In this document: piece after piece, positions 53 through 16,880 of the stretch
Numbering within the stretch: position 1 is the stretch's first letter
Layout: each line of letters opens with the position of its first letter
DNA from: Halomicronema hongdechloris C2206
GTDB lineage: Bacteria > Cyanobacteriota > Cyanobacteriia > Phormidesmidales > Phormidesmidaceae
Assembly: GCF_002075285.3 (NCBI RefSeq)
Contig: NZ_CP021983.2
Coordinates: 3,540,001 to 3,572,000 of the forward strand
Reading direction: 5' to 3'
DNA: 32,000 bases
Notes under the pieces: model-generated
Database searches by the model: none
Seen by the model: the letters and a program-made list of their open reading frames with translations, nothing else
What the model was told of the DNA's origin: nothing
Program-made: the position numbers and the translations under genes

Positions 53-59
53 GTTGGAC
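53..59 (+). repeat. GTTGGAC, the right-hand (R'-type, GTTRRRY) core of an attC-like site whose body lies left of the window
   Basis: It is the exact reverse complement of GTCCAAC at 855-861, the left box of the next attC-like site downstream. Confidence 0.4.
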
Positions 60-95
60 AGCGCTCGAACACGATCGTGAAACGCACAGTGCCCG

Positions 96-899
96 ATGAG
101 AGAAGTGCTATCTGAACACCTAGCCACGTTCATCCGGTCCCTCCCGGAGAAGCGCGAGTACGCCCGCGACGATCTTCTCGTTCCTGCGCTGAAGGTCGCC
201 GAGGATGCCGACAAGGGGCTTGCCGTGTACGACGCTCCGTTCGGCTGGGGCAACCAAGAAGCGCGTGTGGCCCTGATTGGCGTGACGCCGGGTTTCACCC
301 AGATGCAGATTCTCTATCGCGTAGTGCGGAGGCACCTCCTGTTGGGTGCGAGCCCCGAAGACGCTTGCAGGTTGGCCAAGTACGAAGCCAGCTTTGGTGG
401 CACCATGCGCGGGAATCTCGTTCGGATGCTGGACGAGCTCGGGGTGCCGGAACTCCTCGAGGTCGCATCCACCGCCGATCTCTTTGGTTCCAGTTCCCAT
501 CTTCTGCACACCACTTCGGCTGTTCGGTACCCGACGTTCCTCCACGGGCAGAACTACACTGGCAGTCAGCCGCGGCTCGTGAGGTCCGCCTTCTTGATGC
601 GATACGTTCGGGACGTTCTTGCGCCGGAGCTGTCCCGGCTCCATGCTGCAGTCTTCGTTCCACTCGGCAAGAGCGTCGCCGAGGCCTTGGAGCTACTGGA
701 GACCGAGCAGCGCATCCCGGCTGGTCGAACGCTACATGGATTCCCACATCCATCGGGCGCGAACGGTCACCGCGCGCGGCAATTCGAGAAGGGGAAGCCC
801 GCGATGAGGCGGCGGTTCGAGGAGATCTTGTGTGGAGGTGCCTCGGCGGGCGCTGTCCAACAACAGCATGCAGCGGACGGCGCTGCGCGCCGCCGCTGA
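96..899 (+). CDS. Uracil-DNA-glycosylase-superfamily-like protein (267 aa)
   Basis: This long ORF is in G+C-rich DNA. ALIGVTPGF (aa 59-67) sits where the UDG-fold GxxPG motif A lies, and GFPHPSGANGH (aa 215-225) matches the HPS-type motif B. The low-complexity C-terminus runs into attC-like site 855-914, with the stop TGA at 897-899 inside its stem. The overlapping ORFs in other frames are shadows. Confidence 0.55.
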   Translation: MREVLSEHLATFIRSLPEKREYARDDLLVPALKVAEDADKGLAVYDAPFGWGNQEARVALIGVTPGFTQMQILYRVVRRHLLLGASPEDACRLAKYEASFGGTMRGNLVRMLDELGVPELLEVASTADLFGSSSHLLHTTSAVRYPTFLHGQNYTGSQPRLVRSAFLMRYVRDVLAPELSRLHAAVFVPLGKSVAEALELLETEQRIPAGRTLHGFPHPSGANGHRARQFEKGKPAMRRRFEEILCGGASAGAVQQQHAADGAARRR

Positions 900-914
900 T
901 GCCACACGTTATGC
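855..914 (+). repeat. attC-like site D (60 nt)
   Basis: Left box GTCCAAC (855-861) and right box GTTATGC (908-914). Between them, 871-898 folds as CAGCGG-a-CGGCGC / GCGCCG-CCGCTG, a 12-bp stem with one bulged A and a 3-nt loop. It sits exactly at the switch from G+C-rich to AT-rich DNA. Confidence 0.55.
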
Positions 915-1030
915 GGCTTTAACTTTTGGTGGTGAGACGGTATTTGAAGGCTACTGACTAGATGATGCGAGTTTAGAAAAGTCATGGTGAGATAGATCGC
1001 TCTTAGCGAGGAATATGACTTTTGTATAGG

Positions 1031-1876
1031 TTATGTTAAAAAGTTGTAGTGCTCACAAAGCTTCTTCAACTTGCTTATTAATTGATTTTGTACGCTTGCA
1101 GGAGATAAAACTAGACATTCTTCCCCATAACGTAGGATCTCTCGAATAAACCAGAATGTATTTGATACACGTCTAACTATGTAGCGAGCATCGTCCTTTA
1201 CCTCATTGGTTATGTCATCTGGTTTAGGTTCATAAGCTTTTACCAACCTTCCCAATACTTGTAAGTGCACTTCGATATATTCAAGCCGATCTTGCCAACT
1301 GCCACTTGCTGGCAAGACGTTGATAATTCTATCTAAACGGAAGCAACGGTTATGGATTAGCTCGGGTAGATTCAAGCTACCCTCCGTTTCCTCACACCAT
1401 GCTTCTAGATAGAATCGCTTTTCCCAAAAGCGAATTTCGCCGTAGCGAACGGTAAATTCCATCTGTTTGTTTTGAGAGTCTTCATAAAACAGATGAAAAG
1501 GCTGTTTAGCTTTAATTTGCTGATCAATGACTCTACGCCATGATTCAGTAGGATGACTAACTTGTTCCAGCAGTGCCTGGCGTAAAGGTGTCTCTAAATT
1601 GCCATGTTCTAGTAGGAAAAGGGCCAAAGTCTGTGCATCGGCAATATGACCAGAATCAACCAATAGTCTTATAGCTTGTCTGATGGCTGTATTTTGACTT
1701 GGGTCAAGTGCAAGTACACTGCCAACCTCAAGTTGGTGTTGAGCGATCGCCACGACTAACCCTGAAATACTGGGTTTATCGCCCCACATAATGCCTAAGC
1801 CATCAGCTATTGCCTCTAACTGCTCTTTAGTTCCAGGTGGGATGGAAAGTGTGATTGTCTCCTTTCTACGCGCCAT
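1031..1876 (-). CDS. WYL-domain transcriptional regulator with an N-terminal ribbon-helix-helix-like segment (281 aa)
   Basis: The N-terminus TITLSIPPGTKEQLEAIA is RHH-like. A WYL-type core (FTVRYGEIRFWEKRFYLEAWCEE ... RCFRLDRI) is followed by a C-terminal extension, as in BrxR/CapW-class regulators. It is transcribed divergently from the operon starting at 2182. Confidence 0.75.
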   Translation of the reverse strand: MARRKETITLSIPPGTKEQLEAIADGLGIMWGDKPSISGLVVAIAQHQLEVGSVLALDPSQNTAIRQAIRLLVDSGHIADAQTLALFLLEHGNLETPLRQALLEQVSHPTESWRRVIDQQIKAKQPFHLFYEDSQNKQMEFTVRYGEIRFWEKRFYLEAWCEETEGSLNLPELIHNRCFRLDRIINVLPASGSWQDRLEYIEVHLQVLGRLVKAYEPKPDDITNEVKDDARYIVRRVSNTFWFIREILRYGEECLVLSPASVQNQLISKLKKLCEHYNFLT

Positions 1877-2181
1877 TTTAGTTATACTTGCACCTTTCAG
1901 GAAATGTCGTTAGTATACATATATAGTCCATTCTCTCAAAATCTTACCTGAGTTTACTCAATTGTATCACCGTCTCAGTGAGGGATTCCCAGCATTACCC
2001 TGGAAATCAATATCTGCTGTGTGTCAGTGAAGAATCCTGGATCACGTGGATTTACAGAGATACTTCGTGAGAATAACCCTGTTCTTCGGCTTCAGCTAAT
2101 TGAGTCAAGAAGTCTGTAAACCAAAGCTAGCAGTAAACTTCAAACTCATTCACTCGAGTTCAATTCCCAGCGAGGTCTCAA
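1877..2181. promoter_or_regulatory. Divergent intergenic control region (305 bp) between the WYL regulator and the MBL/E2-E1-JAB operon
   Basis: Both genes must be promoted from here. It contains an imperfect palindrome GATTCCCAG-N7-CTGGAAATC (1984-2008) and related half-sites (GAATCCTGG / GTGGATT, about 2031-2055). No promoter boxes are called with confidence. Confidence 0.4.
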
Positions 2182-3327
2182 ATGCACAAAGTTATTTTCT
2201 ATCCAGTACAAAATGGTGATACGAGCCAAATTATTTTGAGTAATGGTAAGCGCCTATTATTTGACTTTCGCCATTTGAATCGTGGGGAGAAGGAGGATGA
2301 TCCTGCTATTGATCTCAAAAGCCAACTAAATAGCGAACTTGCGAAAGCAAAACGCGATTACTTTGATGTTCTAGCTCTTACCCACGCAGATTTGGATCAC
2401 ATCTTGCATAGCACCGAGTTCTTTGAGCTACAGCACAATCCTGCTTATCAAGGCAATGGACGAATCAAGGTTAATGAGTTGTGGGTTCCAGCCGCCATGG
2501 TACTGGAGACAGCTACAACCGAGCAGTGGAAAACAAAAACAGAGTTTGTCCTTTGGCGTCAGGAGGCTCGGCACCGTCTTCTTAGAGGCGAGGGTATTAA
2601 GGTTTTCTCAAAACCGAAAAAGTTGAAAAGCTTCCTTGAGGAAAATGGGCTAACTGTAGAGTCACGTCGTGGCCTAATTGTTGATGCTGGAAAACCAGCT
2701 GTTCCAGGATTCTCTCTTGAGAAAGATGGCGTTGAATTCTTCTGCCATTCTCCATTCGTTAAGCATGTTGATGAAGGCGATGACTTACGAAATGATGCCT
2801 CGCTTATTCTCCAAGTTCGTTTTGAAGTTGCAGGTATTCAAACCAACTACCTTGCTGTGGGGGACTCAACCTGTGGCGTGCTTGAAGATATTGTACACAC
2901 CACTAAAGAGCACGAAAATGAAGACAGATTGGAATGGCATTTGTTTAACATCCCTCATCATTGCAGCCATCACGCCCTGAATTCAGACGACAAAGGTGAT
3001 AAAGAAACAGTTCCCCTTCCTTTAGTGAAAGAACTGCTCATGTACGGTCAATCAGGAGCCTACATTGTGAGTTCAAGCAAGCCAATTCCTGATACTAAAG
3101 GAGCCTACCAACAGGAACTCCCACCCCATATCCAAGCAAGAAAATGCTACGAACGGTACTTGAGGCAGATCGGTGGACGGAGGTTCGTTGTCACTATGGA
3201 GGAGCCGAACGAACGAAAGCCACAGCCTTTGGAGTTTGATATCACCAGCGCAGGAGTCAGTTTGAATACGACTGGAAACTCTGGTGTTAACATCATTGTC
3301 TCTTCTCCAACACCAAGGGCAGGTTAG
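2182..3327 (+). CDS. Metallo-beta-lactamase-fold protein, ComEC/Rec2-like subtype (381 aa), ending in ...PRAG
   Basis: THADLDH (aa 67-73) occupies the HxHxDH position. IPHHCSHH, followed by AYIVSSS...PPH, resembles the HHGS...HP tail of ComEC-type MBL domains. GCGAGG lies about 12 nt upstream of the ATG. The stop TAG (3325-3327) directly abuts the next ATG. Confidence 0.8.
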   Translation: MHKVIFYPVQNGDTSQIILSNGKRLLFDFRHLNRGEKEDDPAIDLKSQLNSELAKAKRDYFDVLALTHADLDHILHSTEFFELQHNPAYQGNGRIKVNELWVPAAMVLETATTEQWKTKTEFVLWRQEARHRLLRGEGIKVFSKPKKLKSFLEENGLTVESRRGLIVDAGKPAVPGFSLEKDGVEFFCHSPFVKHVDEGDDLRNDASLILQVRFEVAGIQTNYLAVGDSTCGVLEDIVHTTKEHENEDRLEWHLFNIPHHCSHHALNSDDKGDKETVPLPLVKELLMYGQSGAYIVSSSKPIPDTKGAYQQELPPHIQARKCYERYLRQIGGRRFVVTMEEPNERKPQPLEFDITSAGVSLNTTGNSGVNIIVSSPTPRAG

Positions 3328-5571
3328 ATGGCAGATACATATACCAACTTTGGTGAGGTAATTTCTGAACTCACCGAAGACACCTTGGTTATCCCAATCT
3401 CGCGTCGAGTTTTTAGAGCTTGTTCTACCCATAATTTATTTGAGCTTATCGAGCTAAGATGTTTTGTTCACGACGGGCAACGCACAGCGGAAATGCTCGT
3501 TGTTGATTGCACTAATGACAGTGTCCCTACCAAAAACGAAATTGGGATCCTCTACCAAGAGCGTATTGGCTTAATCTTCAGTACTGAAGAAACCAAAATG
3601 CCTGAGATACGAGCGTTGCGAAAAGATTTCCCCGTAACCTCACACCAAAATCTTGTTAGAAAGGATGAACCTGCGTCGTTGTGCCTTTATTTTGAACCTT
3701 GGGAAGTAGTGCAACGTTCTTGGACTCCTCGAAGCCATCTTAATCGAGTATTATGGTGGCTTTCTGAAACCGCTAGAGGCACTTTACATCGTGAAGATCA
3801 ACCAGTTGAACCGTTCTATTTTCGCAGTCTCTTCGAGATTATCCTACCTCCAAATTTTGACGAAAAAATTCAGCATCCTGATTTTTTTCTGACGCTCAAA
3901 AGAGTAGAGAATAGAGTCTTTTTAGGATGCTTTTTACAAGCTTCCAGGAAAAAAAGTGTTCAGATAGAGCTAACCTGTCTCGCTATTGCTCTTCAACCAG
4001 TAACTCACGGCTTTATTGAACCTTTTCCATATGATTTAGGAACACTTGACAAGCAATTTTCAGCGCGAGGCGCTACTCTGTTCGATTTGCTTTGTGCTGA
4101 GATCAAGCGTAGCGTGAATGGAGAAGGAACTCCAAAGGTATCTGATAGTAAAACACTTCTTATTTTTCAGATACCTGTTCAACGAAGTGGCAATAGTGTT
4201 GTAGAGCGAAATGAATACAAAGCGTTCTATCTCAACATCAATCTTGGGAAGTTAGGCGAAGCATGCGGTGTGTTAACAGATGGCACAGATGGTAACTACT
4301 ACAATATTCCTGCTTTTGGCGAAGATTTGAGTTCCAATGATGCTTGGCGCTCTATTGACGTTGAACCGATCGAGATTATATTCTCTCTGACTTATGAAAC
4401 TGCACGCCAAGCTTCTGGTATCACTGCTGACACTGCTGAACTTTCTGGTGTTCTTGCAGGTGTTGGGGCACTTGGTAGCAGTCTTGCCGACATCTGGTAT
4501 CGAGAGGCGTGGGGCACCTGGACATTTGTTGATATCGATTACATTAAGCCGCATAATTTAGCCCGACATACAGCTAAACATTTTCAGGTTGGTCAGTTTA
4601 AAGCAAATGCAGTCAAACAAACAGTAGAGGAAACCTATTTTGACGGCTATGCAAAAGCTTCTGCTATTGTCGATAGTGTGACTAATTGGTCAAATGCAGA
4701 CTTGAAGACTGCTGTTGAAAGTGCAGATTTAGTAGTTGATGCAACAACTACGCTTGCAGTGCCGCGTGATTTAGCGATCGCTGACCTTAAACGATCAGCA
4801 TCTATTTTTCTAACTCCTTCTGGACACGACTCTGTTTTACTTCTCGAAGATTCCGATCGGAACGTACGCTTAGATGGACTGGAGGCACAATATTACGAAG
4901 CCATCTTGAATAATGCTTGGGGTGAGCAACATCTGCTTGGACATCAAGGGCATCTTTGGGTTGGTGCAGGATGTCGTGATGTATCAAGTGTGATACCAGT
5001 CGAGCTTCTTCAGCTTCATGCTGCAACACTTGCACGGCAAGTTAGGCTCAGATGTGAGCAACCCGATCCTGTAATCTCGGTATGGCATGTTGAGCAGCTA
5101 TCTGGGACCATTAATGTTCACACAATATCTGTGGCTGCAAACCTAACTGTGGCTGCTAATGGTTGGAACATTATATGGAACGCTCGCTTGCAGGATAAGG
5201 CTAGGCAAATTCGTGCTGCTAATCTTCCAAATGAAACGGGCGGAGTCTTACTCGGCTATTTTGATCAAAAATTACAGTCAATCTTCGTGGTCGATATCCT
5301 CTCTGCTCCCTTAGACAGTGCAGCAGATTCAAGTGGATTTATACGCGGCGTTCAGGGTCTTGAGGAACAGATCAAAATGGCGCAAGCACGGACAGCTAAC
5401 ATTGTGTCCTACATTGGTGAATGGCATTCTCATCCACCAGGAATCTCAGCTAGACCGAGTGGATACGATATCAACCTCTTGAGCTATCTTGCTGAGATTC
5501 TCAATCGTGATGGACTGCCAGGTGTAATGCTCATTGTTGGTGAAAATCAGGAAACATGGTCAATCCGATAA
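3328..5571 (+). CDS. Single-chain E2-like / E1-like (ThiF) / JAB (JAMM) fusion protein (747 aa)
   Basis: E2-like module: SHQN (aa 105-108) then SLCLY, with Cys119 at nt 3682-3684. E1 module: GVGALGS (aa 378-384), FVDIDYIKPHNLARH (aa 400-414) and GAGCRD (Cys549). JAB module: NETGGVLLG (Glu636) and HSHPPGISARPSGYD (aa 700-714, His700 at nt 5425-5427). Confidence 0.85.
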   Translation: MADTYTNFGEVISELTEDTLVIPISRRVFRACSTHNLFELIELRCFVHDGQRTAEMLVVDCTNDSVPTKNEIGILYQERIGLIFSTEETKMPEIRALRKDFPVTSHQNLVRKDEPASLCLYFEPWEVVQRSWTPRSHLNRVLWWLSETARGTLHREDQPVEPFYFRSLFEIILPPNFDEKIQHPDFFLTLKRVENRVFLGCFLQASRKKSVQIELTCLAIALQPVTHGFIEPFPYDLGTLDKQFSARGATLFDLLCAEIKRSVNGEGTPKVSDSKTLLIFQIPVQRSGNSVVERNEYKAFYLNINLGKLGEACGVLTDGTDGNYYNIPAFGEDLSSNDAWRSIDVEPIEIIFSLTYETARQASGITADTAELSGVLAGVGALGSSLADIWYREAWGTWTFVDIDYIKPHNLARHTAKHFQVGQFKANAVKQTVEETYFDGYAKASAIVDSVTNWSNADLKTAVESADLVVDATTTLAVPRDLAIADLKRSASIFLTPSGHDSVLLLEDSDRNVRLDGLEAQYYEAILNNAWGEQHLLGHQGHLWVGAGCRDVSSVIPVELLQLHAATLARQVRLRCEQPDPVISVWHVEQLSGTINVHTISVAANLTVAANGWNIIWNARLQDKARQIRAANLPNETGGVLLGYFDQKLQSIFVVDILSAPLDSAADSSGFIRGVQGLEEQIKMAQARTANIVSYIGEWHSHPPGISARPSGYDINLLSYLAEILNRDGLPGVMLIVGENQETWSIR

Positions 5572-5587
5572 ATACAGGAGTAAACAT

Positions 5588-6376
5588 ATGGTTATAGATT
5601 TTATTGAAAAGAACTTTGATGATTATAACCGCAAGGCTAGACTAGCACCTGCCTTACTTGTTAGTTTACCGATCGCATTGACTGTCATTGCATTTTCCCC
5701 AAATCATGTTTGGTCATGGGGAGGAGTAGCCAGTTTGCTTGCTTGGTTTGGAATACTCAAGCTCTTGGCACAACTTGCTCGTGATATGGGTAAAGCTAAA
5801 GAAGAGGAGTTATACACTGCTTGGGGTGGTAAACCTACAACGTACTTTCTGCGGTACCGTACTACACGAAACAAAGTAAATTTGGCTCGTCAACATAGAA
5901 AGTTACATGAGTTAACAGGGCAGTCTATACCGAATGAAAGCGAAGAATTGGCTAATCCAGATTTAGCAGATCAAATATACGATACGTGTACTCAATTTTT
6001 GCTTTCTAAGACACGCGATCATAGTAAATTTTTTCTGATTTATGAAGAAAATTGCAATTATGGTTTTCGACGAAATTTACTAGGAATGAAATTCCTTGGA
6101 ATTTTAACTTCATCTATAGGTGTGTTTTTTATTGGAGCACAGTGTATTTCCAAAATTGGATTGCTTAATATATTTGCAGCCAGGCAAGTCAATAGTTTAA
6201 TTCAGGCAGGAACGAATTTACAATTCTCTAACTGTTCTTCATTATCAGTTGCTTGTTTACTGGTAAATTTTTTTCTGCTTATCGCCTGGTTATTGTGGAT
6301 CAATTCGGGTTGGGTGAAAATAGCAGCTGATGCATATGCGATCAGGCTACTTGAATCTTGTGAAAATTTACCCTAA
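5588..6376 (+). CDS. Membrane protein with about four predicted TM helices (262 aa), last gene of the operon
   Basis: The ATG at 5588 is preceded by AGGAG (5576-5580). The 5534 start in the ORF track would overlap the previous gene and has no RBS. Hydrophobic segments are LAPALLVSLPIALTVIAF, GGVASLLAWFGILKLLAQL, FLGILTSSIGVFFIGAQ and LSVACLLVNFFLLIAWLLWI. I recognise no family. Confidence 0.7.
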   Translation: MVIDFIEKNFDDYNRKARLAPALLVSLPIALTVIAFSPNHVWSWGGVASLLAWFGILKLLAQLARDMGKAKEEELYTAWGGKPTTYFLRYRTTRNKVNLARQHRKLHELTGQSIPNESEELANPDLADQIYDTCTQFLLSKTRDHSKFFLIYEENCNYGFRRNLLGMKFLGILTSSIGVFFIGAQCISKIGLLNIFAARQVNSLIQAGTNLQFSNCSSLSVACLLVNFFLLIAWLLWINSGWVKIAADAYAIRLLESCENLP

Positions 6377-6469
6377 TGCTTCCTAAAGTTAGGTTTCTGC
6401 GCTATTTATAATGTTGAGTAACTCAGGCTGAATTGCGGTTTGTAGTTGCGAATCAGGCAAGCGCCAGCC

Positions 6470-6557
6470 ACATAACATTGCGCTGAACCGGAACGGAGCG
6501 TAAGCTTTCTGCTAAGTTGCAAAGGCTGTCGCCGTCCGGTTAGCTTAAACGTTAGAC
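6470..6557 (+). repeat. attC-like site A (88 nt)
   Basis: Left box ACATAAC (6470-6476) and right box GTTAGAC (6551-6557). The stem is AACCGG-a-ACGG (6486-6496) / CCGT-CCGGTT (6532-6541), with the same bulged-A architecture as sites D and B. It shares about 100 nt of similarity with sites B and C. Confidence 0.55.
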
Positions 6558-6745
6558 CGCTTAGCCCCAGTGGAGACAGTAACCTAAAAATCAAGCAAAC
6601 GTTCAATAATTGGTGAAAATAAAACCAAGGAGCTATCAAGGAATTTGACAGTGCAATTTAAATCTTGTTGTACTGTCCTCGTTTTCGAGAGTAAGATTTA
6701 AAGAAGATTTTTATCCCACTGTTCAAATACAGGGAGAGTGTAAAA

Positions 6746-8158
6746 ATGACTTCCATCAAAATCTCTGGTTCACATGATGACTTAGAGATGATTGAGTCAT
6801 TAAGCAAAGAGATTTTTCGAGAAAATGAAATCCCAGTTAAAACTCAAATTTCTGAGTTTCGTAAAGATAGCATTGATGCAGAAATCGTTCTGCCTGTACT
6901 TTCAGTTACTTTTAGTGGGGTGATAGCAGTTGCTCAAATAATTAATCTTATACTAAATATACAGGAGAAGAGAAGCAAGAGTATTGCCCAAAAAGATACT
7001 CCTATCTCCCTCAAAATTGAGGCAAGTAATGGAAAAGAACTAGATTTTAGGATTTCTGGTAGCACGACAAACGAAGAAATAAGAAAGTATTTGAGTTCTG
7101 TCAATCAATTTATTGATGATTTTCTTCGAGATGATGATGGCATTTCATTAAATAATGATCAGCTAGGAGAGACTGCAAGCTCAACAGATATCGAAAAGAT
7201 CAATTTGCTATTTAGAGGTTTGTTAAGCAATCTGACTGATATAAGAGAATGGAAATCTTTACCTCCAAAAAAGAATGGAGAAATAATTACTTTTAAATCA
7301 ACTTTTGAGAAAACTAGCTTGAGAAAACTTATTTGTAACTCCAGAGTTTCAAAGATCTACTTAAACTATGAGGAAGCCAAGCTTTGTAAAGGGCTATTCT
7401 ATATCTTGGAAAGGGAAAACATTTTAACTTTTCATGAATTAAGCGATGATTTTCGTGTAATTGACATGGAAAATATGTTTGTCAGATATGAAGTAGAAGA
7501 GCTTGCAATATTTAATAGAGTAAATCATCTTAAAAACTTTTTTCTAAACGATATATCCTCTCCATCTGCTACTGAAAACCTAGGTGAAGTAATTTCAATT
7601 TTGCTACTCTCAGCCGATCCATCTGATGCTACTAGATTAAGGATCGGAGAAGAATTTAGAGAAATCCAAGATAAGCTTCAACTAGCACAATTAAGAGAAC
7701 GGTTTAGACTAAATCTTCGGATGTCCGCTCGCCCAGAAGACATCAGCCAATCATTACTAGATTCGCAGCCACAAATTGTGCATTTTTCTGGTCATGGCTT
7801 AGCTACTGGTGAGTTGTGTTTTGAAGACAAAATAGGAAAAGTACATCCAGTTTCACCTGATGCCTTGGCAGCTTTATTTGAGCAATTTGCAAGTCAAATC
7901 AAATGTGTGCTGCTCAATGCTTGTTACTCAAAAGCTCAGGCGATTGCCATTGCTCAGCACATTGACTACGTGATTGTTATGAATCAAGCTATTGGCGATA
8001 AAGCTGCAATTGCATTCACTATTGGTTTTTATCAAGCACTAGGGGCAGGACGTACGTTCAAAGAAGCTCATAAATTTGGATGTATCCAAATTAGGTTACA
8101 AAGTATTCCCGAACACTTGACTCCTATTCTTCTTGAGAGAGGCGCATGTGATTACTAA
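6746..8158 (+). CDS. Membrane-anchored CHAT/caspase-like protease-domain protein (470 aa)
   Basis: RBS-like GGGAGAG lies upstream of the ATG. The N-terminal ~90 aa contain one hydrophobic helix (IVLPVLSVTFSGVIAVAQIINLIL), reminiscent of EACC1-type effector-associated modules. The C-terminal ~185 aa match the cyanobacterial CHAT-type module (ILLLSADPSD..RLRIGEEFREI..) with the His/Cys dyad in IVHFSGHG (His350) and LLNACYS (Cys393). The stop TAA lies in a TACTAAC box. Confidence 0.75.
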   Translation: MTSIKISGSHDDLEMIESLSKEIFRENEIPVKTQISEFRKDSIDAEIVLPVLSVTFSGVIAVAQIINLILNIQEKRSKSIAQKDTPISLKIEASNGKELDFRISGSTTNEEIRKYLSSVNQFIDDFLRDDDGISLNNDQLGETASSTDIEKINLLFRGLLSNLTDIREWKSLPPKKNGEIITFKSTFEKTSLRKLICNSRVSKIYLNYEEAKLCKGLFYILERENILTFHELSDDFRVIDMENMFVRYEVEELAIFNRVNHLKNFFLNDISSPSATENLGEVISILLLSADPSDATRLRIGEEFREIQDKLQLAQLRERFRLNLRMSARPEDISQSLLDSQPQIVHFSGHGLATGELCFEDKIGKVHPVSPDALAALFEQFASQIKCVLLNACYSKAQAIAIAQHIDYVIVMNQAIGDKAAIAFTIGFYQALGAGRTFKEAHKFGCIQIRLQSIPEHLTPILLERGACDY

Positions 8159-8167
8159 CGCTGTCTA

Positions 8168-8563
8168 ATCGGGATAGGGGAAAACCTCACGGTCTCCCCC
8201 TCCCACACCACCCATCGTGCGGGTCCGCAATGGGCGGTTCTCAACCTAAGTGCTAGACAGACTGACGGACTTGTCCTCGTAGCCCTGAACCTTCATCCAG
8301 AGGTCACGAATCGAAAGCAATCCCTGTTGTGCTAACCACTCATTCGTCATCCCTGTCTGCGTCGCCAACGTCCGCGACAACCGCCAATATCCCTTCCGGC
8401 TCAAGCCAGTGGAAAGGGCGTGCTGCCTCGGCGTTCCCAGTTTCAACAAATTGCCGATGCGCGTCCTCGGTCTACGCCATTGTTTCCAATAACACATCCG
8501 GATTCGTCGCCTCAGTGCGATCGCATATCGCCGTAGGTTGGGTTGAGACACGAAACCCAACAC
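8168..8563 (-). mobile_element. 5'-truncated group II intron remnant (3' end of the intron-encoded protein plus domains V and VI)
   Basis: The minus strand encodes the maturase tail. It is followed by a domain-V-like hairpin (8207-8238: 9-bp outer stem, 2-nt bulge, 4-bp inner stem, tetraloop). Next is a domain-VI-like helix (8171-8204) with a bulged A at 8175, 7 nt from the inferred 3' end at about 8168. The upper boundary is approximate. Confidence 0.7.
8246..8563 (-). pseudogene. Group II intron reverse transcriptase/maturase, C-terminal fragment only
   Basis: RRRIRMCYWKQWRRPRTRIGNLLKLGTPRQHALSTGLSRKGYWRLSRTLATQTGMTNEWLAQQGLLSIRDLW is the characteristic maturase (X/thumb) tail of intron-encoded proteins. 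The RT domain is absent. Confidence 0.75.
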
Positions 8564-8591
8564 TCACAGGCTTTAGCCAGTATAATTGTAC

Positions 8592-8719
8592 GGTGGGCAT
8601 TATCTTTTCCGAGATCCTTGCTAACCCATACTCAACCTACAATGCCCACCACTGAAAAAAGGTGGGCAAACAAAGCTTAGAGACGATAGCAAGGGGTGTC
8701 TATTATGGCTTTGCCCACC
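8592..8719. repeat. Two tandem 59-nt hairpin units built on GGTGGGCA / TGCCCACC arms
   Basis: GGTGGGCAT (8592-8600) pairs with ATGCCCACC (8642-8650). GGTGGGCAAA (8661-8670) pairs with TTTGCCCACC (8710-8719). Confidence 0.5.
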
Positions 8720-8747
8720 CTACTTCACTACTTCACTACTGACCGCT

Positions 8748-8822
8748 GGTGGCACAGATGACATCGACAACATACAGCCCCTTTGTTATCAGTGCAATTC
8801 ATCCAAGTTCAATGGTCGTTGA
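8748..8822 (+). pseudogene. HNH endonuclease C-terminal fragment
   Basis: It translates to GGTDDIDNIQPLCYQCNSSKFNGR*, which has the GG..N..LC..C..K end of the HNH motif. The upstream His residues and a start codon are missing. Confidence 0.4.
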
Positions 8823-8830
8823 AAAGAACA

Positions 8831-9163
8831 CTAATGAAGTTCCAGACAGTGCAACTCGGGATTGTTCAAGAGTTCTTGAATTGCTGTTGCTCCGGAACGA
8901 ATTAATGCTTCGACTTGATTAGTTGGTGCATTGCCACATCGCAACCAAACAACTTTGGGTGGAGAGCCATAAAGCCGACTTCTTTCAGAGAAATCTGCAT
9001 CTTGCGTCACTATGCAAAAGTCATTGAGCTTAGCAAAATCCCAGATTTCAGTATCTGTTTTCTCAGCTAGGTCATGGAATTGAACGTGGCTGGATTCAGG
9101 AAAAATATCAGCCAACCGATTAATCAGCTTACGGCTAAGGTTTTGGTCAAACAGCAGCTTCAA
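8831..9163 (-). CDS. DUF5615-family (PIN-like/Mut7-C-like) putative toxin (110 aa)
   Basis: MKLLFDQNLSRKL...IWDFAKLNDFCIVTQDADFSE is typical of DUF5615 partners of DUF433. It overlaps the upstream gene by 4 nt. Confidence 0.75.
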   Translation of the reverse strand: MKLLFDQNLSRKLINRLADIFPESSHVQFHDLAEKTDTEIWDFAKLNDFCIVTQDADFSERSRLYGSPPKVVWLRCGNAPTNQVEALIRSGATAIQELLNNPELHCLELH

Positions 9164-9414
9164 GCAGCACTCACCGATGCAACTAAACGATGTTCGCGAT
9201 CAGCTGCGAACTCTAAACAAGCCCTAATGTCAGTTTCCGTTAATTCTGGAAAGTCGTCAATGATTTCAGCGGTAGACATACCAGCCGCTAACCAGCCCAA
9301 GACATCGTAGACCGTAATCCGCATCCGGCGGATGCATGGCTTGCCACCACGCTTATCAGGCTCAATCGTAATGATGTCGCGATAGCTCATAATACGGACA
9401 GGCTGCTTGTGCAT
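9160..9414 (-). CDS. DUF433-family putative antitoxin (84 aa; alternative start at 9390)
   Basis: ITIEPDKRGGKPCIRRMRITVYDVLGWLAAGMSTAEIIDDFPELTETDIRACLEFAA is the DUF433 signature. Confidence 0.75.
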   Translation of the reverse strand: MHKQPVRIMSYRDIITIEPDKRGGKPCIRRMRITVYDVLGWLAAGMSTAEIIDDFPELTETDIRACLEFAADREHRLVASVSAA

Positions 9415-9430
9415 ACCTAAGTCTAAAGCA

Positions 9431-9517
9431 GGCTAACACCTCGCTGCAACGGACGGCGATTAGTTGGTCGATCTGAGGCAAGAGGTTGTCTGCCGCCGTT
9501 GAGCTTCACCGTTAGTC
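9431..9517 (+). repeat. attC-like site B (87 nt)
   Basis: Left box GGCTAAC (9431-9437) and right box GTTAGTC (9511-9517); the reverse complement of the left box matches the right box at 6 of 7 positions. The stem is CAACGG-a-CGGC (9447-9457) / GCCG-CCGTTG (9492-9501). Confidence 0.55.
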
Positions 9518-10010
9518 CGCAAGGTTATCTTTGGAGCGTTCATCAATCTTATTTGTTGGAATTCAGCAGCTAGCCACTGCGAGTCCGTCTGAGGGCGACG
9601 CGCTTGAAAACTACTATAGAGAACTAATTTCCAGATGTCGTTGCAAGTTAAACTAGCGTTAGCTGCCAATTCGCTCGATCTGAACTGTACACTGTTGCCA
9701 TAGGTAGAAAGTGTTAAATACAAGGATTTTGCACCTAGAGTTACGAAACGAGGCCCTTTCGGAGGTGCTACCGAAATAGATTGTTTCTCCGCTGCTGTCA
9801 GTGCTGCGAATCATTGGCTTGAGAGTAACCCCGTACAAGTTGTGAATATCGAGACAATAATGTCGCCGAATGTCAAAAGTGCTACAGATGCTGGGGCATA
9901 CAGATTTGGTATGGGGTTAGATAACTGGCATCAGTATGTACATGTCTGGTATATGGAAGAACAGGAAAGTTATAATAATCCTTAAAATTATTGCGACAAT
10001 TGATTGGGGT

Positions 10011-10289
10011 ATGAGTCAGCAGCTAGTTTTGGAAATCAGCGATGAAGTTTACGCAGACTTGCAGCGTAAGGCGAATGCAGTGGGCGTATCCATCCCGGAG
10101 TGGATAATTACTGTTCTCAGCAGGCAAGGGGAAGCTGTCACCAAATTAATACTGTCTCCGGAGCGGCAAGAGCAAGCACGACAGAAATTCAAGAGTCATG
10201 CAGGTGCAATTAGTCTAGGGCACGCGACGGGTTCTGATAACCAAGCGATTGATGCTGATCTCGCAAGAGCTTATGCCGATGAGTATTAG
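10011..10289 (+). CDS. Antitoxin-like small protein, partner of the PIN toxin (92 aa)
   Basis: I prefer the start MSQQLVLEISDEVYADLQRKA at 10011; the 9936 start adds an implausible hydrophobic leader. The C-terminal GHATGSDNQAIDADLARAY motif is common in cyanobacterial PIN-associated antitoxins. The gene lies 15 nt upstream of the PIN gene. Confidence 0.65.
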   Translation: MSQQLVLEISDEVYADLQRKANAVGVSIPEWIITVLSRQGEAVTKLILSPERQEQARQKFKSHAGAISLGHATGSDNQAIDADLARAYADEY

Positions 10290-10304
10290 GCGCGGAGTGA
10301 CTTT

Positions 10305-10709
10305 GTGCTTCTAGATACATCAGGCTTGTTGTGCTACGTCCATCGTGACGAACCGCAGCATGAAAAGGCAGTTCAGTTAGTCGATGGTGCAGGCAGTAGA
10401 CTCTTGACTCACAGCCATGTTTTAGCTGAGTTGATTGCTCTTGCACTGGTTCGCCGACTTCCTCGGACAAAAGTTCTAGAGTTTGTGGTTGACCTGGTTG
10501 ATAACCCGGACATAGAAATAGTCTGGGTTGATGAGTCGCGACACCGAGAGGCAATGCAGCTTTTGGTTAATCGACAGGACAAAACCTACTCATTGTGCGA
10601 TGCGGTCAGTTTTGTCCTGATGCGCCAGCGTGGCATCAGCGATGCATTAACGACAGACTGTCACTTTGAGCAGGAGGGGTTTATCAGGTTGTTGCCGCCA
10701 GCAAGCTAA
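10305..10709 (+). CDS. vapC: PIN-domain ribonuclease toxin, VapC-like (134 aa, GTG start)
   Basis: LLDTSGL (first acidic residue), LTHSHVLAELIAL, SLCDAVSF and LTTDCHFEQEGF give the PIN acidic-residue pattern. The stop TAA lies inside the AGCTAAC box of attC-like site C. Confidence 0.75.
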   Translation: MLLDTSGLLCYVHRDEPQHEKAVQLVDGAGSRLLTHSHVLAELIALALVRRLPRTKVLEFVVDLVDNPDIEIVWVDESRHREAMQLLVNRQDKTYSLCDAVSFVLMRQRGISDALTTDCHFEQEGFIRLLPPAS

Positions 10710-10788
10710 CACCTCAGCGCAGCGAACAGTCAAAGTTTTCTGGTGAAATGCCGAGGGTGTCTGCCGCCGCTGGCTTTCACCGTTATGC
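10704..10788 (+). repeat. attC-like site C (85 nt, more degenerate stem)
   Basis: Left box AGCTAAC (10704-10710) and right box GTTATGC (10782-10788). Its right half, CTGCCGCCGCTGGCTTTCACCGTTATGCGGCT, closely matches 888-918 of site D. Confidence 0.5.
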
Positions 10789-11046
10789 GGCTGCAGTCCC
10801 TGGTGAAAGCAATCCCTGTAACCCTCGGTCAGCATGAAGGGCTGCTCTTCTACCGCTCTCTGGGTAAGCGGTGTAGGATGGTAGCAAGGAGGGTAATACG
10901 AATGTTCCTATCATCGACGAAGTCGTTGAACAGTTGAAAGCTATGCCTCAGCCTTTGCAAAGGCAGGTGCTTGAGTTTGTTATATCAAATCCGCTAAGAC
11001 AGGCAACATTACGATGATGTATCACAACTGCAATCCGTCATTCCGG

Positions 11047-11170
11047 GCAAGCGCAGCGCGCCCCGGAATCTAGGCAGAGCGCTTTGGGCGTAGCTGAGAT
11101 TGATGCCCTGGATTCCCGCCTTAAGGCCTCCGGCCTCGCTTCGCGAAACGCGGGAATGACAGAGATCTGT
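11047..11170. repeat. MITE-like palindromic element (124 bp) at the right edge of the island
   Basis: The termini are GTCATTCC (11047-11054) and GGAATGAC (11163-11170). Internal hairpins are ATTCCGGG/CCCGGAAT (11050-11079) and ATTCCCGC/GCGGGAAT (11122-11167), the latter with a nested AGGCC/GGCCT hairpin. Confidence 0.5.
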
Positions 11171-11288
11171 TTTCCTAGGTGAATTAACCGGATTTCATAT
11201 TAGATCATTGGTGAAAGCAGAGGTTTGAGGTACACCAGGGCAACAATTGCTGCGTTTTGCTGGTTCAATTCCTTGCCGCCGCATAACA

Positions 11289-12266
11289 TCAGCTCTCCCG
11301 GTCGGGTTCATCGCTCTGGGCGAGCCTCGTCGACTCCTTTCTGTTTTCCTCGGTTCGGCCCCACTGCTCCGCCCGGGGAGACATCGGTAGATGCTGTAGG
11401 ATGGCAGAGGCCGTAGCCTCTGGTCGTTCCAGATGGGGCACATGGCCACAGTCGGCAATCCACACCAGTTGGCTGTGGGGAATAGCCTGTTGGAAGCGGG
11501 TAGCATCTTTGGTGCCTAGGATGCGGTCTTGCTCTCCCCAGAGGATCAAGGTGGGGCAAGTTATCTGTGGGAGTTTGGCCTGCAGGGAACGGTAGCCACC
11601 GCTTTTGGTGAAGGCGATTAGGGCCTGTTTCCAACCTGGCATGGCCACATGCAGTGAGGTGCAGCAATCGGCATCGGGAGTGACTAAGGTGCGATCGCAA
11701 TAGGCCCGCAGACTGATGCGGTGACGCACCCAGGCATTCTGCAAAAAGGCGGTGGCCCAACCATCCAGGGGCGGTACCATCACCTTATCTATGGCCGGCC
11801 CCGCCGATAAGCCAGCGCTATCGATTAACACCAGCTGCTCGACACAGTCGGGATAGGCCAGGGCGAACTCGAGGGCGGCAGCCCCGCCCATAGAAGCTGC
11901 CACCAAGATTACTGGGCGTCCGATCAACTGCTGCCAAGCGCTATGGAGATGCTGCTGGATCGCCGCTGGATCGAAGCGGGGGCTGACGATGCGATCGCTA
12001 AAGCCAAACCCCAGCAGGTCAATGGCCCAAACTTGGGTGCGGGCCGCCAGCCGCGGCAGTAACCGTCGAAACTCTAGCAGAGAGCTATCGAAACCATGCA
12101 GCAACAGTAGAGGGGGTTCCCCAGCCCCCTGACAGACATAGGCAGTGGCGATGGGGTCAGGGCTCAGGGGCGTAATCACATCCTGCCGCTGCATCTGCTG
12201 GGCCATCTCAATGGAGGTGGCCTCGCTGAGCTGATGGACCGCCGGGGGCAGAAACTCGGGAAACAT
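11289..12266 (-). CDS. Alpha/beta-fold hydrolase (325 aa)
   Basis: PLLLLHGFDSS, a nucleophile elbow in VAASMGG and a C-terminal ADCGHVPHLE are present. I chose the start MFPEF at 12266, because the 12518 start in the track would overlap the preceding gene by about 200 nt. Confidence 0.8.
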   Translation of the reverse strand: MFPEFLPPAVHQLSEATSIEMAQQMQRQDVITPLSPDPIATAYVCQGAGEPPLLLLHGFDSSLLEFRRLLPRLAARTQVWAIDLLGFGFSDRIVSPRFDPAAIQQHLHSAWQQLIGRPVILVAASMGGAAALEFALAYPDCVEQLVLIDSAGLSAGPAIDKVMVPPLDGWATAFLQNAWVRHRISLRAYCDRTLVTPDADCCTSLHVAMPGWKQALIAFTKSGGYRSLQAKLPQITCPTLILWGEQDRILGTKDATRFQQAIPHSQLVWIADCGHVPHLERPEATASAILQHLPMSPRAEQWGRTEENRKESTRLAQSDEPDRES

Positions 12267-16351: not shown

Positions 16352-16467
16352 GGGGCGCTAGGGAATCTATTCGTTGAAGTGGCGGCGGGCTGCTCTGCCC
16401 TTCTCGTGCTCTACGGGCAGGCTGTATCAATGGCTCCATGGCACGTGTAGGGCACTCAGCGGCTCCG

Positions 16468-16880
16468 CAGGAGCAACGAAGTCGAGCCACTGCCCTGGAT
16501 CCCGTGGACGGGCTTGTTGGTCAGTAGTCATAGACCTCGGTAAGACCACACTTAATTGCACCAGTCAAAGCGCTCACCCGGGGGAATTTCGCTTCCCCCG
16601 GCCCCCTACGACCAGGGCAAACCGCTTGTGGTGTTCGCAAAGCGGCTCCGCTCGTAGTGAGCGAAGTCGAACTGCAGGAGCAACGGAGTCGAACTACTGC
16701 CCTGGACCTGCGGAAGGGCTGGTCGGTGAGTAGTGATAGAGATCGCGTCGCATCGGTAAGTGGTGAGGAGCATGTTTTCGGCTTCTGCCTTCCCCTCTGT
16801 TTTCTGCCTTTCCCACGCTGCTGCCCTGGACCTGCGGAAGGGCATATCGGTGAGCCGTGATAGATCGCGTCGCATCGGCA
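16468..16880. repeat. Three copies of a ~60-78-nt dispersed repeat with an embedded hairpin
   Basis: The copies are at about 16468-16545, 16684-16760 and 16821-16880 (the last is 5'-truncated). They share GCAGGAGCAACGrAGTCGA..ACTGCCCTGGA..GGGC..GGTGAGTAGTGATAGA..CGCATCGG. Additional GC hairpins lie at 16578-16601 and 16902-16920. Confidence 0.7.

Follow-up and report, generated by a model that had tools for sequence, protein, structure and literature searches.

Positions 53-11287 of the window, as we call the 32,000-nucleotide stretch of DNA from Halomicronema hongdechloris C2206 analysed here, belong, with a probability of about 0.9, to a chromosomal integron array of gene cassettes or to a CALIN (a group of attC sites without an integrase), of which they form the integrase-distal part. 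The repeats in this region are genuine integron attC recombination sites, for which we infer recombination activity, and each unit of the array ends in an attC of the known cyanobacterial type. The cargo consists of a UDG-like gene, a 6A-MBL anti-phage system, a CHAT protease, two toxin-antitoxin pairs, and a broken antitoxin (Table 1).

Table 1. Features of the array; positions are those of the window.
Feature	Position	Strand	Details
R'-type box GTTGGAC, cassette 1 start	53-59	+	crossover G/TT at 53/54
Cassette 1 gene XM38_033600, uracil-DNA-glycosylase-superfamily-like	96-899	+	unit 63% GC
attC site D	855-914	+	60 nt; R1 43.8 bits, E 7.5e-9, full length; pairing 13/13
Four-gene 6A-MBL anti-phage module	1020-6387	mixed	5.37 kb, between attC D and A
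6A-MBL module, WYL/WCX regulator	1031-1876	-	
6A-MBL module, MBL-fold enzyme	2182-3327	+	
6A-MBL module, E2-E1-JAB 'cap2_3' protein	3328-5571	+	
6A-MBL module, 262-aa protein without family matches	5588-6376	+	
attC site A	6470-6557	+	88 nt; R1 52.5 bits, E 4.8e-11; published HMM 39.3 bits, E 2.1e-11; pairing 13/13
Cassette 3 gene, CHAT-domain (caspase-like) protease	6746-8158	+	Pfam PF12770, PADLOC 'chat'; unit 36% GC
Left box GTCTAA/(C) of CHAT cassette attC	8163-8168	+	intron cuts between AA and C
Group IIC-attC-type intron 3' fragment	8169-8571 (right limit approximate)	-	~400 nt; maturase remnant, domains V/VI
Toxin-antitoxin pair, DUF433 (9160-9414) and DUF5615/PIN_10 (8831-9163)	8831-9414	-	Pfam E 1.6e-25, 1.7e-35
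attC site B	9431-9517	+	87 nt; R1 61.7 bits, E 2.2e-13; published HMM 37.5 bits; pairing 13/13
Antitoxin-like ORF (9936-10289) and PIN-domain toxin (10305-10709)	9936-10709	+	Pfam PF01850, E 2.7e-13
attC site C	10704-10788	+	85 nt, partly degenerate; R1 36.1 bits, E 6.5e-7; published HMM 30.3 bits; pairing 11/13
Last, decayed unit	10789-11287	+	small antitoxin-like ORF, split and truncated (translation)

The first-pass annotation had described four full attC-like sites and suggested a scan with an attC covariance model; every site on its list is present in the sequence where it had been placed. Our model, R1, was made from 56 metagenomic sites only, all in arrays and some adjoining IntI genes; 14 of its 20 base pairs carry compensatory changes, and the observed values were reached by 0/500 shuffles. 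When both strands of the window (64 kb) were scanned, R1 returned exactly four full-length matches, D, A, B, and C, all on the + strand and with the ends annotated earlier (36-62 bits, E 2e-13 to 7e-7), and no further match at E<1. As a positive control, attC_aadA1 (38.7 bits) and attC_dfrA1 (24.4 bits) were recovered from a class 1 integron, and D, A, and B scored above clinical attC sites. The published Cyanobacteria attC profile (Ghaly 2021, PMC8352920), rebuilt from supplement 3, aligned with A, B, and C on the + strand over nearly their full length (E 2e-11 to 1.4e-8); site D, a 60-nt short-loop variant, was missed by this sequence profile alone. Metagenomic sites of the same type form arrays on one strand, with as many as 14 sites within 9 kb. 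Such sites also adjoin integron integrases, and the four full-length integrases among these reach 409-449 bits with TIGR02249 (cut-off 265) and contain the KYP..A...W.W.VFP patch. The attC identity, strand, bulged-A stem, and crossover logic proposed earlier hold with two independent models and the class 1 integron control.

The sites share the layout R''(7) - 5 nt - 3 bp - bulge - 6 bp - bulged A - stem ... 6 bp - 3 bp - 6 nt - R'(7), which D, A, and B fit at 13/13 and C at 11/13, whereas 200 composition-preserving shuffles of the window yielded zero sites with a 13/13 fit; the common stem of a 6-bp helix, a bulged A, and further pairing was corroborated. Sites A, B, and C agree, almost position by position, with the 87-position consensus published for Cyanobacteria (PMC4889954; PMC8352920), GcCUAAC AAgUC GcU G cAGCGG A Cggg ... 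gccG CCGCUg AgC UuaGuC GUUAGgC, and resemble that type in length (85-88 nt), in the strand-specific top-strand bulges G and A, and in chromosomal location. Site D reads GTCCAAC AACAG CAT G CAGCGG A CGGCGC tgc GCGCCG CCGCTG ATG CCACAC GTTATGC and equals attC_aadA1 in length (60 nt) and layout. Both attC_aadA1 and attC_aadA7 of class 1 mobile integrons have the identical layout 7-5-3-bulge-6-bulge(A)-stem / 6-3-6-7, with the second bulge likewise A in the top strand and T in the bottom strand, and R1 scores both the H. hongdechloris and the class 1 kinds of site. The first top-strand bulge, however, is G in the H. hongdechloris sites and C in aadA1, which makes the first extrahelical base of the bottom strand C here and G in attC_aadA1, a difference we count against the array reading. 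Bottom-strand folding, also suggested earlier, placed the bulges on the 3' arm, with extrahelical C and T in site D, but site C folded no better than shuffles.

For the single-stranded bottom strand of each attC, a hairpin is predicted in which the R boxes pair, the spacer stays unpaired, and two bases are extrahelical. By analogy with the integron literature, the hairpin would be a substrate for an IntI tyrosine recombinase, whose cut, between A and C in AAC of the bottom strand, would excise or insert units as circles. Because units would move as circles, the left box of each should be complementary to the box at its own start. The first-pass annotation had reported such box-swapping, and the match extends beyond 7 nt in cassette 1 (14/16; 16 nt from position 53 compared with the reverse complement of the 16 nt ending at D's R''), in the D-A unit (11/16), and in the last unit (13/16, or a 13/14 inverted repeat). 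The rule fails at site C, whose box matches the preceding R' at only 8/16, and this too counts against the array reading. Cassette 1 is also present in contig L004 of a high-GC, unrelated MAG, where homology begins exactly at G/TT (GTTGG) and the attC left half is the same; its relatives with 70-73% identity are found in Gammaproteobacteria MAGs, and the XM38_033600 ORF extends into its own attC. The 52 nt to the left of the 53-59 box are AT-rich, lack an attC L' arm, and gave no truncated R1 match at the window's left edge; they could be attI or a divergent attC. GC content by unit is 63%, 43%, 36%, and 46-47%, compared with 58% for the host.

The interrupted site behind the CHAT gene, recognized in the first-pass annotation, is real, but its left box had been placed at TACTAAC (8153-8159). 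We rejected this candidate; the true box is GTCTAA/(C), beyond which the remainder of the attC is missing. With the box relocated, the CHAT cassette also obeys box-swapping, since GTCTAAC, when reverse-complemented, equals the R' of site A, GTTAGAC (7/7). It also follows that the CHAT stop codon lies 5 nt upstream of the box and not inside it; of the stop codons earlier assigned to the TAAC of left boxes, that of PIN (site C) retains this position.

A group II intron inside this attC, as had been suggested, is confirmed by the canonical AA/C position, a maturase remnant, domain V/VI hairpins (fold z = -3.5), and a junction match to a class 1 integron. The fragment has lost its 5' part, retains the maturase C terminus together with domains V and VI, and is oriented opposite to the cassettes. 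The maturase remnant was seen by translation and by tblastn against ltrA genes (47-68% identity, E 1e-17 to 2e-26). The junction TGTCTAA/TCGGG is identical to that of the IIC-attC intron in attC_aadA1 on plasmid NZ_OQ420468.1, and the fragment aligned to the intron of that class 1 integron. None of the Rfam group II models scored it. Group IIC-attC introns of the S.ma.I2 lineage (PMC3001079) likewise insert into the attC bottom strand, opposite to cassette transcription; here, in contrast, only the 3' ~400 nt are left and the host is a cyanobacterium.

Beyond the intron, the DUF433-DUF5615/PIN_10 pair is inverted relative to the array. A MITE-like insert (~11037-11165) interrupts the antitoxin-like ORF of the last unit, and the ORF is cut short after ...GTPGQQLLRFAGSIP. 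The array terminates in an isolated R''-type box, GCATAAC (11281-11287), with no complete attC, which counts against the array reading; chromosomal sequence common to a related strain starts at 11289. A later-truncated IIC-attC intron in one attC, the degenerate site C, and the broken last unit are signs of age at the distal end.

The 6A-MBL module was identified by NF058524 (387 bits, cut-off 220) and NF058523 (682 bits, cut-off 320) and also by Pfam and PADLOC. Of the 5.6-kb multi-gene, self-regulated cassette described earlier, the multiple genes and own regulator stand, but the unit is better cast as a 5.37-kb module with unique flanks of 105 nt (915-1019) and 82 nt (6388-6469). The 5.6-kb spacing from D to A exceeds the 4-kb IntegronFinder clustering rule, again a point against the array reading. 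The module is 84-90% nucleotide-identical to L129-L135, where it has the same ends as far as the contigs reach them. Because it occurs in other cyanobacteria without attC sites, it may have inserted secondarily or been recruited recently. We lean slightly toward the view that the D-A interval (915-6557) did not originate as one cassette, and that the module either entered an existing cassette that was small or empty, by a route independent of attC recombination, or was recently recruited, the flanking attC sites bracketing it by chance. With the same identity and ends, the module is found in at least three other cyanobacterial contexts, which include an ICE-like region with TraC and TrbI, a position between fecCD and its ABC ATPase, and one beside PemK/MazE; no attC match (E<=5) was obtained at the four other 6A-MBL loci searched, which also counts against the array reading. 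The module has its own WYL regulator and a divergent promoter region, in which it differs from typical cassettes, which are promoter-less. Integron defence cassettes reportedly have a small, streamlined size (bioRxiv 10.1101/2024.07.02.601686), and the flanks separating the module from D and A are unrelated sequence. Against this, the ends of the interval are still complementary at 10/11 (GTTATGCGGCT compared with the reverse complement of AGCCACATAAC), so the interval as it stands would behave as one excisable unit; neither a target-site duplication nor a transposase marks an insertion, and at the left end the other loci share ~25-100 nt more than the window does.

It is very improbable that the repeats have no relation to integrons and represent a generic REP/MITE-like palindrome or transcription terminators. 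They are imperfect palindromes between genes, small repeats abound in cyanobacterial genomes, and a true MITE family is present in the same region (11037-11165, also L125). However, two attC models match with strand specificity, the sites have conserved, asymmetric spacers and bulges as well as conserved AAC/GTT boxes, and a T-run is lacking. The repeats also lie at the 3' ends of gene units whose neighbours are linked by box-swapping, their relatives adjoin IntI genes, and the window's 20.7 kb of host DNA contain zero copies. Whether integron or CALIN, the array has no integrase and no recognisable attI in the 32-kb window, as had been stated earlier, and this is counted against the array reading. 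By orientation, an integrase, if present, should lie left of the window, a placement supported by the TIGR02249 confirmation of the four metagenomic integrases. That the genome has no functional integron integrase, with the sites fossils of a dead CALIN that no longer recombine, is a real possibility to which we give somewhat less than an even chance. Consistent with it are the missing intI, the decay (degenerate C, truncated intron, one attC half lost, MITE in the last unit, terminal isolated R''), the related strain, in which no attC adjoins the orthologous abhydrolase, and the report that CALINs are common and most have no nearby intI pseudogenes (PMC4889954). Sites D, A, and B are nonetheless structurally perfect, the window takes in no more than the distal end, a place where decay would be expected, and the side where the integrase should lie is beyond it.

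Contrary to what had been proposed, the cyanobacterial host is not itself unusual, because integrons have been reported in Cyanobacteria (Cury 2016, PMC4889954) and a Cyanobacteria-specific attC model is published (Ghaly 2021, PMC8352920); both the cyanobacterial integrons and this attC type are already in the literature. No mention of the H. hongdechloris array was found in the cyanobacterial integron literature and supplements searched. Unlike class 1 mobile integrons, the array is chromosomal rather than on a plasmid or transposon, and its cargo is not antibiotic resistance. It resembles the sedentary chromosomal integrons of Vibrio and Xanthomonas (PMC13108822; bioRxiv 10.1101/2024.07.02.601686) in its interspersed toxin-antitoxin cassettes, one inverted, its defence genes, and its heterogeneous GC, but only 4-6 sites are present in the window and they are less uniform than Vibrio cholerae repeats. 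The defence system also differs from theirs in being full-size rather than streamlined, with four genes, 5.4 kb, and its own regulator. The unusual feature of this array is a complete 5.4-kb anti-phage system between two attC sites.

The four attC sites in the window very probably form an integron cassette array (probability about 0.9). Sites D, A, B, and C are 60, 88, 87, and 85 nt long, respectively, and in each the left box (R'') fits the inverse core RYYYAAC and the right box (R') fits the core GTTRRRY, in opposite orientation and within the range of 57–141 nt apart. The AAC and GTT of the boxes are invariant, and the remaining positions fit the consensus loosely. A scan of the window for a layout with fixed spacers (7-5-3-bulge-6-bulge-4 / 4-6-3-6-7) gave 13 of 13 pairs for D, A, and B, with spacers of exactly 5 and 6 nt, and 11 of 13 for C. 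The three sites with all 13 pairs are on the + strand; there were none on the - strand and none in 200 shuffled windows. The layout of site D is identical to that of attC_aadA1, which is also 60 nt long. When folded as DNA, the bottom strands of D, A, and B pair their TAAC/GTTA boxes; beyond an unpaired spacer come helices of 3–4 bp and 6 bp, each followed by one extrahelical base (C and T, respectively), and then a stem with a variable loop. Both bulges are on the 3' arm. The folding check proposed in the first-pass annotation, therefore, bears out the attC shape for these three sites, but site C has the hairpin only in part, with 11 of 13 pairs and a fold no better than shuffles. An additional candidate at 917–1036 (12/13 in a loose architecture scan) was rejected because its bottom strand lacked an attC fold and it was matched by neither of the models described below.

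No attC family was found in Rfam; taxon-specific attC covariance models were deposited as text by Ghaly et al. (2021; PMC8352920), whose Cyanobacteria model comprises 51 chromosomal sites and 87 positions. Only the HMM part, rebuilt from supplement 3 and run with nhmmer, was used here. It matched sites A (E = 2.1e-11), B (7.8e-11), and C (1.4e-8) near full length on the + strand, and at nearly every position all three agree with the consensus and structure line of the published model, the unpaired G and A among them. Site D was recovered only in part because its centre is 7 nt long, compared with approximately 35 model positions. Independent sites were collected by a degenerate-pattern scan of metagenomes, which yielded 120 loci; the published profile found 179 sites in 64 of these, always on one strand per locus and in arrays of up to 14 sites in 9 kb. 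A second covariance model, R1, was built from 56 diverse metagenomic sites, none of them from the window. In the R1 alignment, 91% of cells were paired, a percentage inflated by pre-selection of the 56 sites for at least 12 of 13 pairs, and 14 of 20 pairs had changed on both sides, which the pre-selection does not affect. None of 500 shuffles reached the observed values, slid controls had 29–39% of cells paired, and the attC stem is kept by covariation across the family. An R1 search of the window with filters off recovered the four sites, each complete and on the + strand, and no further match with E < 1. A class 1 integron (plasmid NZ_OQ420468.1) served as the positive control, in which R1 scored attC_aadA1 at 38.7 bits and attC_dfrA1 at 24.4 bits. 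All sites listed in the first-pass annotation were found where it had placed them, and models independent of the window agree with its identification of A, B, and C (both models) and of D (R1, and the published profile in part) as attC, with R1 boundaries that coincide exactly with its own.

Features of the array with model scores or gene identity
Feature	Position (nt)	Strand	R1 score or identity
UDG-like gene	96-899	+	XM38_033600 (100% identity)
attC site D	855-914	+	43.8 bits, E 7.5e-9
attC site A	6470-6557	+	52.5 bits, E 4.8e-11
attC site B	9431-9517	+	61.7 bits, E 2.2e-13
attC site C	10704-10788	+	36.1 bits, E 6.5e-7

IntegronFinder groups attC sites into an array when they lie on one strand and no more than 4 kb apart. 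The A-B (2.9 kb) and B-C (1.2 kb) intervals are within this limit, and the D-A interval (5.6 kb) is above it; the toxin-antitoxin genes that precede site B are encoded on the strand opposite to the array. Cassette boundaries were compared by matching the reverse complement of the 16 nt ending at each left box with the 16 nt starting at each right box. The left box of D matches the box at position 53 in 7/7 positions (14/16 extended), and every other right box reaches at most 9/16. The left box of A matches the right box of D (6/7, 11/16), and the terminal box at 11281–11287 matches the right box of C (7/7, 13/16). The exchange of boxes expected from a crossover between G and TT had been proposed from the sequence and stands for D, A, the terminal unit, and the corrected site of the CHAT cassette described below (7/7), but the left box of site C breaks the rule (5/7, 8/16).

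The CHAT cassette ends in an attC site interrupted by a group II intron. Translation of 8169 to approximately 8571 on the minus strand gave the C terminus of a group II intron maturase, which is 47–68% identical to ltrA genes (E down to 2e-26). Hairpins of domains V and VI follow the maturase remnant (fold z = -3.5); an Rfam search of the fragment gave no match even at E ≤ 1. The remnant is a 3' fragment rather than a complete intron, and its 5' part has been lost together with the rest of the host attC. A plasmid homolog of the intron lies between the aadA1 and qacEdelta1 genes of a class 1 integron and runs against the direction of the cassettes. At the plasmid junction, the top-strand sequence is ...AATGTCTAA/TCGGGTAGCC..., and the C AATTC GTT... 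of attC_aadA1 has been displaced to the far end of the intron; the corresponding sequence at the window junction is ...GCTGTCTAA/TCGGGATAGG..., and the alignment of the two introns extends across domains VI and V. Group IIC-attC introns are reported to insert in the bottom strand of attC at the AA/C position (PMC3001079). From the junction match and the intron alignment, the left box of the interrupted site is GTCTAA/C, with GTCTAA at 8163–8168 and the cut between AA and C, and this replaces the TACTAAC (8153–8159) of the first-pass annotation, which is the stop-codon region. The corrected box has GTTAGAC as its reverse complement, a 7/7 match to the right box of site A, so the CHAT cassette also obeys the boundary rule. 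The fragment, therefore, has the features of a group IIC-attC intron (bottom-strand insertion in attC, maturase, and domains V/VI), and the earlier placement of a group II intron inside an attC site holds, with a junction identical to the attC_aadA1 copy and a maturase C terminus that matches ltrA.

Four copies of GGTGGGCA/TGCCCACC in alternating orientation lie in 8572–8830, the stretch that separates the intron fragment from the DUF5615 toxin gene. Its first seven nucleotides, TTTAGCC (8572–8578), agree in 6/7 positions with GTTAGCC, the predicted start box of the toxin-antitoxin cassette, so the deletion that removed the 5' part of the intron may end at the old crossover point.

The UDG-like gene of cassette 1 has a relative, 70% identical at the protein level, on a contig from a high-GC metagenome-assembled genome (MAG; L004). 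Nucleotide homology between the two begins exactly at GTTGG, preceded in L004 by a different GC-rich attC-like hairpin, and the L004 gene is followed by an attC left half, GTCCAAC GGCAG CAT G CAGCGG A CGGGGC, as in the window. On this comparison, L004 would be external support for the boundaries of cassette 1, as supporting evidence only. Its attC-like flanks were treated as relics rather than working attC sites; R1 scored none of them at E ≤ 1. In three Gammaproteobacteria MAGs (L001, L002, and L003), the UDG-like gene follows an acyl-CoA dehydrogenase gene in a fixed chromosomal context with no attC. At its 3' end (L001:10760–10800), the last ~22 nt (CCAAACAACTGCATGCAGTGA) have kept a resemblance to the attC D left half (CCAACAACAGCATGCAGCGGA), through which the window ORF reads. 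These genes are either domesticated former cassettes, or the attC half derives from the end of the gene.

At the other end of the array, the sequence from 11289 to 32000 is ordinary chromosome with 58% GC, encoding an abhydrolase, a Wzy_C ligase, aconitase, a NorB-like oxidase, and others, and the 11.3 kb before it has a mosaic GC content (63%, 43%, 36%, 46–47%, and 51%). Like the UDG-like protein, the abhydrolase and the E2-E1-JAB protein of the D-A interval are identical to proteins of Halomicronema hongdechloris C2206. A metagenomic relative (L125–L128) has an abhydrolase 88% identical to that of the window and the same Wzy_C-abhydrolase synteny, and its homology to the window begins at the abhydrolase stop codon (11289). 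Leftward of this point, the relative carries MITEs and a different toxin-antitoxin pair, and no attC was found there. Because the shared sequence starts at 11289 and the relative has no attC, the array ends at 11287/11288, after an isolated R''-type box. Together with its flank, this box repeats the beginning of the last unit in inverted orientation (13/14 positions); that unit holds a truncated antitoxin-like ORF split by a MITE. The MITE-like element (11037–11165) has terminal inverted repeats GTCATTCCGGGCAAGCGCAGCGCG...CGCGGGAATGAC, and several copies of its family lie beside the abhydrolase gene of the relative (L125:9560–10420). A terminal attC candidate at 11281–11393 (spacers of 5/6 nt, 11 bp stem, and R' = GTAGATG) was rejected: its fold was no better than shuffles (z = -0.2), R1 did not match it, and from 11289 onward it belongs to the 3' coding sequence of the abhydrolase gene, which is conserved in the relative, where the stem is not kept. 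The abhydrolase has a C-terminal extension of ~30 aa (PMSPRAEQWGRTEENRKESTRLAQSDEPDRES; 11289–11385, minus strand; P0121 and P0122) that abuts the array end and, among eight homologs aligned, is common only to the close relative. Further into the host part, 16467–16864 contains three to four direct repeats of ~47–80 nt with a period of 124–207 nt (GCAGGAGCAACGAAGTCGAGCCACTGCCCTGGA...).

Sites of this attC type adjoin an IntI homolog in six metagenomic loci. Four of the proteins are full-length, score 409–449 bits on TIGR02249 "integron integrase" (cut-off 265), and all carry the IntI-specific KYP..A...W.W.VFP patch. It is very improbable that the sites of the window, which share the covarying stem of this family and mostly exchange boxes as cassettes do, are a generic repeat; site C, with its partial hairpin and deviating left box, is partly degenerate. 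The integrase is on the R'' side of the attC sites in 6/6 loci (four divergent and two co-oriented), so any intI belonging to the window array would lie to the left of position 1, as its orientation had suggested in the first-pass annotation, and the right flank of the array consists of host genes syntenic with the related strain. In two metagenomic integrons of this attC type (L118:810–2362 and L105:1269–3291), the integrase is co-oriented with attC in the "inverted integrase" arrangement, and the L105 IntI has a tandem GHMVL x3 repeat. The reported absence of intI was confirmed by tblastn, which found no IntI homolog, intact or decayed, in the 32-kb window (E > 0.4). Positions 1–52 are AT-rich and have no attC-type L' arm before the GTTGGAC box (53–59), and R1 gave no truncated match there; this is compatible with attI and no proof of it. 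A CALIN is an attC cluster without an integrase: two or more attC sites that have no intI within 4 kb to their left or right. That the array is a dead CALIN is a serious possibility that we hold at somewhat less than even odds, given a window that has no IntI homolog.

The D-A interval encodes a WYL/WCX regulator, an MBL-fold enzyme, an E2-E1-JAB fusion, and a 262-aa protein that matched no family. With equivalog scores of 387.4 bits for NF058524 (cut-off 220) and 682.1 bits for NF058523 (cut-off 320), the MBL-fold enzyme and the fused E2-E1-JAB (cap2_3) protein are predicted by the NCBIfam cut-offs to be a 6A-MBL anti-phage system. Stretches that share the ends of positions 1020–6387 and are 84–90% identical to them at the nucleotide level occur on contigs from other cyanobacteria, so the D-A interval consists of this module and two unique flanks of 105 and 82 nt. 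Elsewhere the module is found in an ICE-like region, between fecCD and its ABC ATPase, and beside PemK/MazE, and the four module loci searched gave no attC match. In cyanobacteria, the four genes of the WYL + 6A-MBL module behave together as one discrete mobile unit: copies (L129:1–4752, L131:7704–13060, L132:4281–9630, and L134:7698–13051) have the same ends in at least four unrelated neighborhoods. One copy (L132/L133) is inside an iron ABC-transporter gene cluster, and the ICE-like region that holds another (L130/L131) also encodes TraC, TrbI, an integrase, and ParAB. Neither attC nor a transposase was seen in the copies inspected, and no terminal repeats were obvious.

The module either entered a pre-existing cassette or was recruited into one. 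We lean slightly toward the module being a secondary arrival. Its ends are the same where attC is absent; in the window, it lies in a D-A interval that has complementary ends and intact attC sites and could in principle be excised as a single unit. A 5.6-kb unit would be exceptional because integron defense cassettes are described as streamlined to small size (bioRxiv 10.1101/2024.07.02.601686), and Ghaly et al. (2021; PMC8352920) took 4 kb as twice the largest annotated cassette. It is unlikely, in our estimate, that the interval is a functional 5.6-kb cassette mobilizable by IntI. On that reading, it would hold a complete 6A-MBL system of four genes with its own regulation, observed shortly after it joined an integron; the recruitment would be recent because the same module persists free of attC in other cyanobacteria. 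Two GTTRRRY-like boxes lie at the module edges: GTTATGT (1030–1036), over the WYL stop codon, is a 7/7 reverse complement of site A's left box and is lacking in the other module copies, and GTTAGGT (6388–6394) directly follows the right end. They could be chance or a trace of the module's entry.

Integrons and CALINs are known from Cyanobacteria (Cury et al., 2016; PMC4889954), so the host is not unusual as the first-pass annotation had supposed, and the cyanobacterial attC type has been modeled (Ghaly et al., 2021; PMC8352920). The toxin-antitoxin modules and the group II intron inside an attC that it cited as integron features are indeed both already described, the latter as IIC-attC introns, and so are defense cassettes; apart from the defense unit and the intron, the array is an ordinary member of a described integron class. 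A literature search for Halomicronema hongdechloris and "integron" returned no paper combining both. CP021983 is the chromosome accession of H. hongdechloris C2206. Neither Halomicronema nor CP021983 is mentioned in the supplements searched from the IntegronFinder 2.0 paper and Ghaly et al. (2021).

These data add a documented cassette array for a chlorophyll-f cyanobacterium and show that careful reading of raw sequence can recover attC sites to the base. The array contains an IIC-attC-type intron at its canonical target; an E. coli plasmid carries a class 1 integron with an identical intron junction. If the D-A unit is a functional cassette, it would be among the largest known, a natural snapshot of cassette birth, and an exception to the view that integron defense cassettes must be streamlined. 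A full-size defense system between intact attC sites, together with its attC-free twin, offers a sequence pair for studying the creation of cassettes and their size limit.
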